Positions 40,237 to 46,489 of a stretch of 64,000 bases of DNA are shown one piece after another. Each line of letters opens with the position of its first letter. Position 1 is the first letter of the stretch. The position numbers and the translations under genes are program-made. A model generated the notes under the pieces. That model made no database searches and was not told the origin of the DNA. It saw nothing but the letters and a program-made list of their open reading frames with translations. Origin of the DNA: an uncultured delta proteobacterium (lineage in GTDB: Bacteria; Desulfobacterota; BSN033; UBA1163); contig CAVSVC010000018.1 of assembly GCA_963731045.1 (NCBI GenBank), positions 26,496 to 90,495 on the forward strand, given 5' to 3'.

Positions 40237-40965
40237 ATGGCACTGGCCATCAAAGCAGACGGTGTCTTCAAGACCTTCAAATCCGGCTGGTGGAAGAGGA
40301 GAACAAAGGAGGCCCTCAGAGGGGTTGACCTCGAGGTCGTGGAAGGGGAGATCTTCGGCATTCTCGGTCCGAACGGAGCCGGGAAAACGACGCTTCTCTC
40401 GATTCTTTCCACACTCCTCCTTCCCGATCGCGGAAGGGTTGAGATCCTCGGCATCGATGCCCTCCGTGACGGGCAGAGGATTCGAGAGAAGGTGAACATT
40501 TCCAGCGGGAATGCAAACTTTCTCTGGAGTCTGACGGTGAAGGAGAACCTTCAGTACTACGGGATGCTCTATGGCCTGGCGGGGAAGAAGCGGGAGAAGA
40601 AGGTGGAAGGGTTGATCGAGCTTTTCAACCTGAGAGAACACCGGAACATCCCCTTTGACGAACTCTCCACCGGCATGAAGCAGCGGCTCTCTCTTGCGAA
40701 ATCGATGATTAACGATCCGGAGGTTCTCTTTCTCGATGAACCCACCGTGGGTCTCGATCCGGATGTCTCGATCGTGATACGGGAACAGACCCGGTTGATC
40801 CAGAAGGAGAGAAGCATGACGGTTCTCCTCACGACGCACAATATGAAAGAGGCGGAATTCCTCTGTCACCGTATCGCTTTTCTCAAGGCAGGGGAGATCC
40901 TTGCCACCGGAACCCCGGAGGAACTGAAACGGTCTGTCCGGATCGGCGACCTGGTTCAGGATTGA
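40237..40965 (+). CDS. ABC transporter ATP-binding protein (ABC-2/DrrA-like), main body
   Basis: Walker A GPNGAGKTT, signature LSTGMKQRL, Walker B LFLDEPT. Confidence 0.9.
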   Translation: MALAIKADGVFKTFKSGWWKRRTKEALRGVDLEVVEGEIFGILGPNGAGKTTLLSILSTLLLPDRGRVEILGIDALRDGQRIREKVNISSGNANFLWSLTVKENLQYYGMLYGLAGKKREKKVEGLIELFNLREHRNIPFDELSTGMKQRLSLAKSMINDPEVLFLDEPTVGLDPDVSIVIREQTRLIQKERSMTVLLTTHNMKEAEFLCHRIAFLKAGEILATGTPEELKRSVRIGDLVQD

Positions 40966-42194: not shown

Positions 42195-44669
42195 TTACGC
42201 TGTTACGTTATTTCGGCAGGGCTGTCGAGCCTTTCCTTTGGCGTTTCTTCCCTGCTCCGTCAGCATCCGCTTTGTCTCGGTCACCTCCTGATCGGTCACA
42301 CTCTTGCGCAGGCGTTCCATCTTCTCCATGACTTCTTTGAAACGGAGTCCCTCGGCAGCGCTGATCCACTCGAGCTGAAGCCTCTCGGGCCGTAATCCGA
42401 GCTTCTCCATCTTTTTCCGCATCCGTTTGACGCGCCGCTCCGTCCAGTGGTTGGCGTTGATGTAGTGGCAGTCGCCGATGTGGCAGCCGGAAACGAGCAC
42501 CACCGGCGCGCCCTTTTCGAAAGCCCGCCAGACGAACTTCTCCGAACCCGGCCCGAGCACATGGTCCGGATCAGCCGGACGTTGGGCGGATACTGGCAGC
42601 CGGGAGACGCCGGCGAAGTCGGCGCCCGCATAGGAGCACCAGTTGCAGGCAAAGACGAGCAATTCGCTCCGCCGGGTCTTCCTCCAGGATCGCGTCGATC
42701 TGGGCCTCGATCTGCTCGTCGGTGAAGTGGTTCATGAGGATGGCGCCGAAGGGGCACTCGGCGGCGCAGGTGCCGCACCCGGCGCAGGCCGCGTCGGTCA
42801 CACGGGCCGGGGTCTTTGCCTTGGTATCCACGGTGATGGCCTTGATACGGGCAGACCTTGGCGCAGATGCCGCAGGACGTGCACTCTTCCGCAACGACTT
42901 CGGCGGTGATCGCCTCGACCCGCAGGTCGAGTCCGGATGCATCAGCCGGATGGCCCGGGCCGCCGCTGCCGAGGCCTGTGTGACGCTCTCCTTGATGTCC
43001 TTCGGCCCCTCGGCGCAGCCGGCAAAGAAGATGCCGCGCGTGGCGGAGTCCACCGGCTGGAGCTTGGGGTGGGCCTCCAGGAAGAATCCGTCCGAGGTCT
43101 TCTGAAGGGCCAGCATCTCCTGGACGATTTTCATGTCTTCGGGCGGCTCGACCCCGACGGCCAGGACCACCATCTCCGCCCGGTGGTTCTCGAGTTGATG
43201 TGGTCGCCGTGTTTTCGACCGTGAGGACGAGATCCTTGCTTTTCGGGTCTTCTTGAATCGATCCCGGCAGCCCCCGGATGTAGCGAACGCCCGGCCCCTT
43301 GCTCCGCCGGAAGAGGTCCTCGAACCCCTTGCCGAAGGCCCGGATGTCGATGTAGAAGACCTTGACCTCCATGTCCGGAGTAGTGCTCCTTGAGCATCAG
43401 CGTGCTCTTGACCGTGTTCATGCAGCAGATGTTCGAGCAGTAAGGCTCCCCGCGCCGCTGGGACCGCGAGCCGACGCACTGGATGAAGGCGATGGATTTG
43501 GGGGTCTTTCCGTCGGTCAGCCGCACGACCTCGCCCTGGGTCGGTCCGCCGGCATTGATCAGGCGCTCGAACTCCAGGAGCGGTGAGGACGTTCTCGAAG
43601 CGGGTGTAGCCGTACTCGTCCAGTTCCGTCGGATCATAGGGTTCCATGCCGGTGGCGACGACGATGGTTCCCACTTTGAAACTCAATTCCTCATCGCTCA
43701 TGTCGAAGTCGATGCACTTCTTTTGACACTTCTCGATGCACTTGCCGCAGACGACGGGATTGTGGCCCAGGCAGTCATCGATATCGATCACATAGGCGGA
43801 CGGGACGGCCTGCGGAAAAGGCGAGTAGATGGCTTTGCGGGAGCACAGTCCCATGTTGAATTCATCCGGAACCACCACCGGGCAGACCTGGGCGCAGTCG
43901 CCGCAGGCGGTGCACTCCTTCTCGTTCACGTAGCGGGCTTTCTTGAGGATCTGGACCTGGAAGTTGCCCACGTATCCCGTGACGGCCTTGACCTCGCTCA
44001 CGGGTCAGCAGCGTGATGTTGGGATGCCGACCGGCATCCGTCATCTTCGGACCGAGTATTCAGATGGAGCAGTCCATGGTGGGAAAGGTCTTGTCGAGCT
44101 GGGCCATGATGCCGCCGATGCTGGGGCTCTTTTCCACCAGGACCACCTCGTAGCCGGTGTCGGCCAGATCGAGCGCCGCCTGGATGCCCGCCACGCCGCC
44201 GCCGATCACGAGGGTGGCGGGTTCAACCGGAACCTCGACCTCTTCACGGACCCCCAGCCATCGGGCCCGGGCGACCGCCGAGCGCACCAGGTCCTTCGCC
44301 TTTTGTGTCGCTCCCTCTGGGTCGTGGGTGTGAACCCAGGAGCATTGTTCGCGGAGGTTGGCCATCTCCAGGAGATAGGGGTTCAACCCCGCCTCATGAA
44401 GGCATTTCCGGAAGGTCGGCTCGTGGAGCCGCGGCGAGCAGGACGCGACGACGATGCGGTTCAGACCGTTGTTCCCGGATGTCGTCCTTGATCTGGTTCT
44501 GCCCCGGCTCGGAGCAGAGGTAGGTGTCGTGGCGGGAGACGATCACGTCCCGGAGCCCCTTGCCGTATTCGGCCACGGCTGCGCAGTCAACGACGCCGGC
44601 GATATTCAACCCGCAATGACAGACATAGATGCCGATTCGACTTTCCTCTTTTTCTTCCTTTGCCTGCAT
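42195..44669 (-). pseudogene. hdrA: HdrA-like flavoprotein fused to MvhD domain, selenocysteine-containing, about 10 frame breaks as assembled
   Basis: Collinear pieces run in frames 2-1-0-2-1-0-1-0-2-1-2: 44394..44669, 44060..44386 plus 43862..44044 (same frame across a TGA), 42571..44001, 43131..43637, 42296..43372, 42195..42662. Motifs: [50 protein letters not shown], several CxxCxxCxxxCP, and an MvhD tail LLVFACNWCSYAGADFAG...GCHIGDCHY. Confidence 0.8.
44015..44046 (-). promoter_or_regulatory. SECIS-like hairpin GGAUGCC-GGUC-GGCAUCC downstream of the hdrA TGA
   Basis: The TGA is at 44062..44060. A 7-bp perfect stem (44039-44033 / 44028-44022) with a GGUC loop starts 20 nt after it. Confidence 0.6.
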
Positions 44670-44696
44670 GCTGTTTCCTCACCCTTCTTAGTGCTA

Positions 44697-44866
44697 AGTG
44701 ATCAGACATCAGTCATCAGTGATCAGTTATCAGTAAAACATGTAACGCTTCATCTTTTGCTGATTAATAATCCTGGGTTACTGGTCCTTGGTTATTGATG
44801 AATGGTCACTGATCACTGACAACTGGTATTTGGTCACTGGTTACTGATCACTGATTACTGATTACT
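44697..44866. repeat. Inverted pair of heptanucleotide tandem arrays (AGTGATC-type x6 / GRTYACT-type x13)
   Basis: Left array 44697-44738: AGTGATC AGACATC AGTCATC AGTGATC AGTTATC AGTAAAA. Right array 44776-44866: 13 in-phase heptads such as GGTCACT GATCACT GATTACT. The right array encodes the C-terminus RVISNQ* of the hdrD-like gene. Confidence 0.85.
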
Positions 44867-46067
44867 CGTGTGTTACCGTCTTTTTGACTGATCGCCTTGG
44901 GCTCCTTCGACCATTCGATGTGATCGGCCAGGACGCTGACCAGGTCCCGGATTTCCATTGAAAGGGAGCCTCCCTGGTAAGGGTCCCGCATGGCGCAAGT
45001 CAGGTGGATCATGCACTTGGGACAGGAGGTGACCAGAAGATCGGCCCGCGTGGCCTTGGCCTCCTGCAATCGTTCCACCTGAATGCGCTTCGAGTATGCG
45101 TCGCAGTTGATAAACCCGTTGTTGCCGCAGCAGACGGCGCTCCGGCCGGAGTTCTTCATATCCTTGAGGGCAAGCTCCGGGACCATCTGCATCAAGGCCC
45201 GAGGCGATTCGCAGGAGCCTTCCAGCCGACCCAGCCGGCAGGGGTCCTGGTAGGTTATCCGGCGTTTCATCGGCTTAAACGTGATCCCTCCCTTGTGGAT
45301 TTCCCGGCGCAGAAGGTCCAGGAGCAGCGTCACCTTGAGATCGATGCCCGGAATCACTCCGGGCATGAACTGACTCAGGACCTGATAGCACTCCGGACAG
45401 GATACGATGATCTCCTTTACTCCGGCTGCCTGGAATTCCTGATAATTCAACCGGCAGAGTGTCTCGAAATTCTCGCGGTCGCCTGTCCAGAGTAGATCGT
45501 GGCCGCAGCAGCGCTCCTCCTTCAATACCACCGGGACGATGTCCAGGAAGTTCAGGAGCCGGATGCTGTCCCGGACAATGGACAGGGTGTTGACCTCGAT
45601 GCCGGAAAAGAAGACGTCGAAATAGGGAGCGCATCCGGTAAAGAAAGCGACGGAGCCGGACTGGGCCACCCGAAGTTCAGTCCCCAGCCAGTCCAGCCGG
45701 TTCTGCTCCAGGTCGGGTGAAGTCATGATCCTCATCCAGGAGTGGAGGGCCCCGTCATGGGACCGGGAGCCCTTGAGGCCTTTCGTCTCTGCCAGCAGGG
45801 TTCGCATCTCCAGAATGAAGTCCCGGACCTCGACCCCGGAAGGGCAGCGCTCCTCACAGAGCCCGCAGGTCAGGCATTCCCAGACGGAGTTCTCGATGAA
45901 GGATTCGTTGTCCGGCTCCGCAATCAGCTTATGGGCCAGAAGCCGCGGAGAGTATTCCTTGCCGCTGAGCATGCGGGGGCACGAGGCCGAGCATTTGCCG
46001 CAATCGAGACACTGGAGAGGGATTTGTCCCGGATGATTTCCTTGATTCGGGGGTCGTCCAGCTTCAT
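44848..46067 (-). CDS. HdrD/GlpC/DsrK-like iron-sulfur protein (2x[4Fe-4S] + two CCG domains), one frame break
   Basis: CLDCGKCSASCP, CLTCGLCEERCP, and CCG motifs ERCCGHD and AVCCGNNG. The true start MKLDDPRIKEIIRDK (ATG at 46067, ATGA overlap with the mvhD stop) joins the main frame if the TTT run at 46023-46025 is one base longer. The track ORF 44848..46275 has a spurious N-terminus. Confidence 0.82.
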
Positions 46068-46489
46068 GGTGACGCCCCCTCTTGCCTCGGTTTCGCAGGG
46101 TTCGGACCCATGGTGAGCATCTGGTCGGAAAACTCCCACAGGGCGCTGACCAGTTCCTGCTTCTCATGGGCTCCGAAGCTTCGTTCCACGAGCCGCTTCT
46201 GGCCGATCCCGAGAAGATGAAGCAATCTGCGCACTTTTTCCACATTGGAGTGGCCCACTTCCGGGCCGGGACCATACCGGCAGTCCTCGTCTTTGCACTC
46301 CAGCAGGATCACCCCGTCGGCGCCGTATTCAAAGGCCCGAAGGATCAGGGCCTGGTTGATGCGGCCGATGCACATCACCCGCATGAAAGCGAAATGGGGC
46401 GGCATCTTCAGATGGGCCATGCCCGCGGCATTGTAGCAGGCAAAAGGGCTCCAGTTGCAGCAAATTCCGAGAAGATTGGTCCGTTCCAT
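46064..46489 (-). CDS. mvhD: MvhD-like (methyl-viologen-reducing hydrogenase delta subunit family) protein
   Basis: 141 aa. ICCNWSPFACYNAAG...MRVMCIGRINQALILRAFEYGADGVILLECKDEDCRY. Confidence 0.8.
   Translation of the reverse strand: MERTNLLGICCNWSPFACYNAAGMAHLKMPPHFAFMRVMCIGRINQALILRAFEYGADGVILLECKDEDCRYGPGPEVGHSNVEKVRRLLHLLGIGQKRLVERSFGAHEKQELVSALWEFSDQMLTMGPNPAKPRQEGASP

Follow-up and report, generated by a model that had tools for sequence, protein, structure and literature searches.

The heterodisulfide reductase subunit HdrA is a CxxU selenoprotein and is listed under the family NF040770 in a 2026 review (PMC13188914). Selenocysteine (Sec)-containing HdrA is present in up to seven copies in Syntrophobacter fumaroxidans and also in Methanococcales (PMC1794560). 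In bacteria, decoding of UGA as Sec depends on SelB and on the Sec insertion sequence (SECIS) of the mRNA (PMC1794560; PMC10778597). In the account of the HdrABC-MvhAGD structure given in PMC9012536, Cys197 of one HdrA protomer is a ligand to the N-terminal [4Fe-4S] cluster in the other protomer, and this cluster belongs to the branch that runs from the bifurcating flavin adenine dinucleotide (FAD) to ferredoxin. Here we describe an hdrA2 gene with an in-frame TGA and a hairpin downstream of it, located in a stretch of 64,000 nucleotides (nt) of an uncultured delta proteobacterium (assembly GCA_963731045.1, contig CAVSVC010000018.1, positions 26,496 to 90,495), which as a whole is called the window. 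An original prediction, made from the letters of the window, had proposed that this TGA is a Sec codon of HdrA, and its statement that Sec-containing HdrA variants exist in Methanococcales and some Deltaproteobacteria is documented in the literature (PMC1794560, PMC13188914). Our analysis leads to a joint reading that we regard as highly probable: the TGA at 44062..44060 encodes Sec in an HdrA2 protein with a fused MvhD domain, its decoding is directed by the hairpin, and the frame changes that interrupt the gene are errors of the assembly. The features are collected in the table.

Features of the hdrA2 locus and of the Sec-decoding genes (plain positions refer to the window; those preceded by a C number refer to contigs of the genome)
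Feature	Position	Strand	Remarks
hdrA2 (HdrA with fused C-terminal MvhD domain)	42195..44669	minus	three-frame translation and tblastn with homologs
Predicted UGA Sec codon, residue 203 (U203)	44060..44062	minus	in frame with both flanks; TGA/Cys column in homologs
C-S-I-U, the predicted CxxU redox/cluster-ligand motif of HdrA	44060..44071	minus	sequence
Putative SECIS hairpin, stem GGAUGCC / GGCAUCC, tetraloop GGUC	44022..44039	minus	fold and ortholog comparison
Frame change 1 (+1)	44468..44476	minus	probably extra G in GGG run 44476..44474
Frame change 2 (+1)	44002..44004	minus	extra C in CCC run, 56 nt downstream of UGA
Eight further frame changes, listed below	42545..43578	minus	approximate positions
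Frame change (+1)	43578-43577	minus	CC
Frame change (+1)	43382-43379	minus	
Frame change (+1)	43210-43196	minus	
Frame change (-1)	42934-42928	minus	fits one base missing in GG 42934-42933
Frame change (+1)	42841-42840	minus	GG
Frame change (+1)	42664-42660	minus	
Frame change (+1)	42596-42595	minus	CC
Frame change (-1)	42546-42545	minus	TT, one base missing
selB	C57:144073-145962		372 bits, full length
selA	C9:39877-41254		227 + 370 bits, two abutting frames meeting at 40427-40431
tRNA-Sec (anticodon tca)	C9:43625-43719		2.4 kb downstream of selA
selD	C36:16212-17132		391 bits, one in-frame TGA

The in-frame TGA of hdrA2 and its hairpin

The codons GAC AAG ACC TTT CCC ACC ATG GAC of the minus strand lead to TGC TCC ATC TGA, which is followed by ATA CTC GGT CCG AAG ATG, then by ACG GAT GCC GGT CGG CAT CCC and by AAC ATC ACG CTG CTG ACC. 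Both flanks of the TGA are in frame, with codon starts at 1 mod 3, the downstream flank reads ILGPKMTDAGRHPNITLLT, and there is no second stop between the flanks. On re-reading, the coordinates and letters that had been reported for the TGA and for the hairpin (44039-44022) were all correct. In the alignment, the TGA takes the place of the second Cys of the CxxC/CxxU motif, as had been proposed for the DCxxC segment of HdrA; it is aligned to Cys197 of the solved structure 5odc_A, and the preceding Cys is aligned to Cys194. Nine close HdrA2 proteins of the Cys type have an invariant Cys in this column, within DKTFPT-x-DCSICILGPKM, and a TGA occupies the column in 55 genes of relatives (33 orthologs, at 68-80% identity, and 22 paralogs). 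The 22 paralogous HdrA genes were found among 30 relatives and have the TGA exactly in the Sec column; in the loci L026 and L028, too, the TGA falls in the same column as in the hdrA2 of the window. The comparison with Cys-type and Sec-type HdrA, which had been named as the way to check the proposal, is therefore in its favour.

The distribution of the TGA among orthologs was obtained from a scan of the phylum (401 genomes), which gave 76 matches to HdrA2 at E<=1e-112. Exactly one TGA was present in 48 of these 76 matches, and all 48 belong to the 50 closest ones, which are 68-80% identical to the product of the window; none of the 26 remoter matches (63-68% identical) has a TGA. In the 33 TGA-bearing loci that were read, the codon stands in FPT-x-DCSI-TGA-ILGPKM without exception. 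None of the 11 listed genomes of the same family has an HdrA2 ortholog at this threshold, 74 genomes of other families have one, and one genome (G363) carries Cys-type and Sec-type HdrA2 copies together. This patchy distribution suggests transfer or loss, along with conversion of Sec to Cys. The best non-fused HdrA matches in relatives, at the loci L009 (genome G029) and L016 (genome G015), have no CxxC motif (YPNMEIVDDLIV and FPNLEETSIIL), and they were unsuitable as Cys-type references, so that the HdrA2 orthologs of the phylum scan were taken instead. A similar case is described for anaerobic methanotrophic (ANME) archaea, in which paired HdrA paralogs have lost Cys197 in a complementary way (PMC9012536).

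The hairpin begins after a spacer of 20 nt from the UGA and is built of a 7-bp stem (GGAUGCC at 44039..44033, GGCAUCC at 44028..44022) that encloses the loop GGUC (44032..44029); it lies within the coding sequence for T-D-A-G-R-H-P and forms the core of the predicted fold of a 61-nt stretch. The apical loop of a bacterial SECIS is expected 16-37 nt after the UGA (PMC10778597), and a conserved G in the loop is given in the legend to Fig. 4 of PMC1794560. The hairpin of the window, whose loop begins 27 nt past the UGA and contains G, agrees with both descriptions, in keeping with the original wording "SECIS-like".

The comparison of orthologs is decisive: conservation of the hairpin is confined to genes that have TGA as the codon. 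All 34 Sec-type genes (that of the window included) have it in the same place, and none of the 17 Cys-type orthologs has it. The consensus of the 34 genes is (G)GAUG[C/U]C-GG[U/G]C-G[G/A]CAUC(C), at a constant distance from the UGA, with the loop GGUC in 33 of them and GGGC in one, and the mean local free energy is -11.1 kcal/mol in the Sec-type genes as against -6.3 kcal/mol in the Cys-type ones. The nearest Cys-type ortholog (L054, with a 79% identical protein) encodes T-D-V-G-R-H-P by other codons, and its hairpin is gone. For covariation, 32 distinct Sec-type sequences were aligned without gaps, and 96.9% of the cells of this alignment are paired; with the 3' partners displaced by 1-3 columns the value is only 21-58%. 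The pair of columns 29-36 is CG in 19 sequences, UA in nine and UG in four, and its compensatory changes tie the second position of a codon, where the change is non-synonymous (Ala/Val), to the third position of an Arg codon, where it is synonymous. The covariation score was reached by none of 500 shuffles; the remaining six of the seven stem pairs show no change from one standard pair to another, so that what covariation contributes is narrow and comes from one pair. Considering that the hairpin occurs in all of the Sec-type and none of the Cys-type orthologs, and that one pair covaries, the hairpin behaves, on comparative grounds, as a bacterial SECIS. Its retention in every TGA-type HdrA2 and its erasure in every Cys-type one amount to a natural experiment, and such a compact signature could serve as a tool to find HdrA2 selenoproteins in metagenomes.

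Two paralogous HdrA families use other hairpins, one with a GGA loop 13 nt past the UGA and the other with an AGGU loop 15 nt past it. A second Sec-type HdrA paralog is encoded in the same genome (C57:226182-226811) and reads FPTNDCSI-TGA-ILAPKL, and the hairpin CUGGUCG-AGGU-CGGCCGG follows its UGA at a distance of 15 nt. The open frame of this paralog has 315 amino acids, as compared with ~1000 in relatives, and has probably been hit by insertions or deletions (indels) too.

The search of the genome for selABCD that had been recommended located a complete Sec-decoding set, consisting of selA, selB, selC (the tRNA-Sec) and selD, and the last of these, to judge from its own in-frame TGA, is a Sec-type SelD. 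The wider claim that the organism decodes UGA as Sec is thus supported by the machinery, by the column in which the TGA stands and by a hairpin tied to the TGA, and the record of the organism should state that it decodes Sec and has at least four predicted selenoprotein genes (hdrA2, the C57 HdrA paralog, selD and a Grx-like gene). A general reassignment of TGA was rejected, because TGA is the commonest ordinary stop of the genome and terminates 1249 of its 2405 long open reading frames (ORFs), that is 52%. Sec in the separate upstream mvhD (46064..46489) was rejected as well, since this stretch begins with the last part of hdrL and goes on, without a change of frame, into a Cys-type MvhD.

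Frame changes in hdrA2 and in the rest of the assembly

The gene starts at ATG 44669..44667, with a GAGGA ribosome-binding site 8 nt upstream, and ends at the stop 42197..42195; between these points the coding frame follows the path 2-1-0-2-1-0-1-0-2-1-2. The original prediction was silent on these ~10 frame changes, one of which is situated only 56 nt downstream of the TGA. Its assignment of the ORF 43862..44044 as the downstream continuation holds as far as ~44003; beyond this point it does not, because the coding frame moves by +1 at the CCC run 44004..44002 and the HdrA sequence goes on as VSEVKAVTGYVGNF in frame 0 mod 3. Most of the breaks can be explained by a single surplus base in a G or C run of 2-3 nt. 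The six long segments of hdrA2 were recovered independently by a Viterbi path based on codon usage. Quadruplet decoding (CGGT at break 1 and CGTG at break 2) was considered and rejected, as there is no common four-letter word across the break sites, two of the ten breaks are -1, and most of them fit one base off in a run of 2-3 nt. The spacer upstream of hdrA2 (44678-44887) is AT-richer and packed with tandem heptamers of the AGTGATC / GATCACT type, which translate as repeated 'SVISDQ'.

When the frames are joined along homology, the product has 822 residues (~822 codons). The frame-corrected translation, with U written as C, matches NCBIfam NF040770 (CoB-CoM heterodisulfide reductase HdrA2) with 1233.4 bits (cut-off 1100), and the match spans positions 1-775 of the 777 in the profile, corresponding to residues 11-793 of the product. 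A public protein of 813 residues is 78% identical to the corrected HdrA2, and many proteins named HdrA2 are 63-75% identical to it. In the alignment with the nine HdrA2 proteins (alignment A1; 66-76% identity) the product is collinear with them, the fused MvhD domain included, and the Fe-S, FAD and MvhD motifs are all intact. The N-terminal 300 residues match 5odc_A with E = 1e-120, and the N-terminal Cys-rich domain is present. By these measures of homology the frame-corrected product is a full-length HdrA2, an HdrA-MvhD fusion and an ordinary member of the family. We propose that it should be annotated as one selenoprotein gene of ~820 codons (HdrA2, U203) and neither as fragments nor as a pseudogene.

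Breaks of the same kind are found elsewhere in the genome, which is a metagenome-assembled genome (82% complete, 65 contigs). For a census of frameshifts, a codon-usage Viterbi model was trained on the long ORFs of the genome, and same-strand switches were counted when they occurred more than 45 nt before the stop of the old frame. The census gave 769 mid-ORF switches and 43 clusters of at least three, for example (genome G000) C2:76174-80460, C50:58716-60774, C7:28666-30805, C64:54-3493 and C11:40272-43027. The ratio of +1 to -1 switches is 568:201, and it becomes 385:89 and 256:38 at stricter thresholds; this bias is informative, because no such direction would be expected of false positives at the boundaries of real genes. 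Several breaks each are located in the carbon monoxide dehydrogenase/acetyl-CoA synthase (CODH/ACS) genes, in the aldehyde:ferredoxin oxidoreductase (AOR) gene and in a PolX-like gene, and the frame-merged products give full-length Pfam matches in a single stretch: Prismane 2-512 of 513 for CO dehydrogenase, CdhC 1-155 of 155 and ACS_CODH_B_C 1-244 of 245 for acetyl-CoA synthase, and AFOR_N 1-196 of 199 and AFOR_C 4-385 of 385 for AOR. The selA gene is split once, by a single indel at ~40427-40431 on C9. Two copies of tuf (C58:53646-54528 and C25:29236-30114) are 99% identical; in the C58 copy the reading of EF-Tu is broken into two frames by a single inserted A (GGCAGTGC[A]CTTGAAGG), the other copy is intact, and the two differ also at a few substituted positions.

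The clustered, +1-biased breaks are most likely patchy consensus errors of the metagenome assembly and not pseudogenes, and as a guess we would put the patches down to poorly polished long-read stretches that close multi-copy gene families. The same explanation, namely single-base assembly errors and not features of the organism, is the most likely one for the ~10 frame changes of hdrA2, since the breaks are clustered and insertion-biased and hit conserved or essential genes without substitutional decay. The most serious competitor, which we nevertheless consider improbable, is that hdrA2 is a real pseudogene, whose frameshifts would be present in the organism itself, with the Sec codon and the SECIS as relics of a recently inactivated gene. 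This would account for the contrast between hdrA2, with its ten frame changes in 2.5 kb, and the upstream genes of the cluster, which are open, and the short homopolymers in which most breaks lie are also sites of real slippage mutations. However, the corrected HdrA2 keeps 362 of the 369 columns (98.1%) that are invariant in the nine homologs, which is within the range of 94.5-99.2% obtained when intact homologs are tested in the same way, and apart from the TGA it contains no nonsense codon, with every Fe-S and FAD motif intact. Pseudogenization would also leave the similarly clustered breaks in CODH/ACS, AOR, selA and one copy of tuf to be explained, and the insertion bias of the genome (4 to 7 to 1) runs counter to the mutational bias of bacteria, which is deletional. 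For an assembly with hundreds of clustered and insertion-biased errors, any claim of frameshift, pseudogene or recoding should be discounted pending a check of the reads.

Weighing the selenocysteine reading

Several observations weigh against reading the TGA as a hairpin-directed Sec codon in a gene broken only by the assembly. First, hdrA2 as assembled is untranslatable, with ~10 frame changes in 2.5 kb (eight +1 and two -1), and a search with the neighbouring MvhD protein of 141 amino acids turned up no independent assembly of the locus. Second, the census of frame switches is crude, since a control on 72 kb of the loci of relatives flagged two of nine boundaries. Third, the 61-nt stretch folded alone is unremarkable (z = -1.67; 11 of 200 shuffles are equally stable), and an Rfam search at a permissive threshold gave no family for the hairpin, only a chance match to an internal ribosome entry site (IRES) on the wrong strand. 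Thermodynamic stability is not relied upon here, as a z of only -1.67 does not carry the case, and it is the comparison of orthologs that is decisive. Finally, the TGA itself sits inside an error-rich patch, so from the DNA alone a substitution error is formally conceivable.

Such an error, by which an original TGC or TGT would have become TGA during assembly or sequencing and HdrA2 would be Cys-type, could draw on the density of consensus errors around the codon and on the frequent occurrence of Cys-type HdrA2 proteins, at 63-79% identity. It would have to coincide, however, with the exact Sec-type codon choices (GAU GCC GGU CGG CAU CC) that build the hairpin within the next 40 nt, which are equal to those of the ortholog L049 but for one base, whereas all 17 Cys-type orthologs have other codons and no hairpin. 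The assembly errors that were seen are, moreover, indels; the few substitutions between the tuf copies may be errors or real differences between the copies. Taken together, these points make a substitution error very improbable, more so than a pseudogene.

Still less credit is given to the idea that the frame changes are real and are tolerated or corrected during expression, so that genome-wide recoding or editing would operate on top of Sec decoding. If true, it would imply hundreds of mostly +1 insertions in short G/C runs of conserved and even essential genes; we regard it as very unlikely because the patches ignore gene function, one copy of tuf is intact and the bias is insertional, as in technical error. 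Equally little speaks for an ordinary stop, with a short N-terminal fragment followed by a separate C-terminal protein from ATG 44044: this ATG lies five codons past the TGA and gene callers would split here, but a break at this point would fall within an invariant motif and sever the FAD-binding domain, all homologs have Cys or Sec in this column, and the conserved SECIS and complete Sec machinery favour read-through.

Proposed role and comparison with known systems

Under the Sec reading, decoding would follow the established bacterial pathway: SelB-GTP-Sec-tRNA(Sec) would bind to the mRNA hairpin GGAUGCC-GGUC-GGCAUCC, 20 nt past the UGA, and the bound complex would cause the UGA to be decoded as Sec with no termination. 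Sec would then replace the second Cys of the C-x-x-C in the thioredoxin-reductase-like domain, which is Cys197 of the crystallised HdrA. Considering that the column corresponds to Cys197 and that the protein of the window has an N-terminal Cys-rich domain, the most likely role of the residue, by analogy with the solved structure, would be that of a selenolate ligand to the N-terminal [4Fe-4S] cluster. The gene is the last one of a predicted kor-hdrL-mvhD-hdrD-hdrA2 cluster.

With the HdrA of Methanothermococcus thermolithotrophicus HdrABC-MvhAGD (PDB 5odc and related entries) the protein of the window shares both the N-terminal and the thioredoxin-reductase-like domain, at the E-value given above, and DKTFPT-x-DCSICIL-x-PKM aligns residue for residue; the difference is that the solved methanogen protein has Cys and no fused MvhD. 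The hairpin resembles the SECIS of Escherichia coli fdhF in that it lies inside the ORF directly after the UGA and has a loop containing G-G-U; in fdhF, G23 and U24 of the GGUC-containing loop are the contacts of SelB. It differs from the fdhF type in its short stem (6-7 bp), its strict GGUC tetraloop and the lack of both a conserved lower stem and an Rfam model. The setting of the gene differs from the classical selenoprotein operon as well, because its neighbours in the window are the predicted kor-hdrL-mvhD-hdrD genes and not the hydrogenase genes frhD-frhG-frhA. The closest agreement is with Sec-containing HdrA2 (NF040770) itself, with which the locus shares the full-length match to the hidden Markov model, the CxxU column, the Sec/Cys dimorphism among orthologs and a fused MvhD (VhuD/FrhD-like) domain, as is often seen; its orthologs in the same phylum (72-80% identity) share both the TGA and the hairpin. 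The copy in the window assembly stands apart by its ~10 frame errors and otherwise by nothing of substance, and the finding is already known in kind, as Sec-containing HdrA has been catalogued since the mid-2000s.

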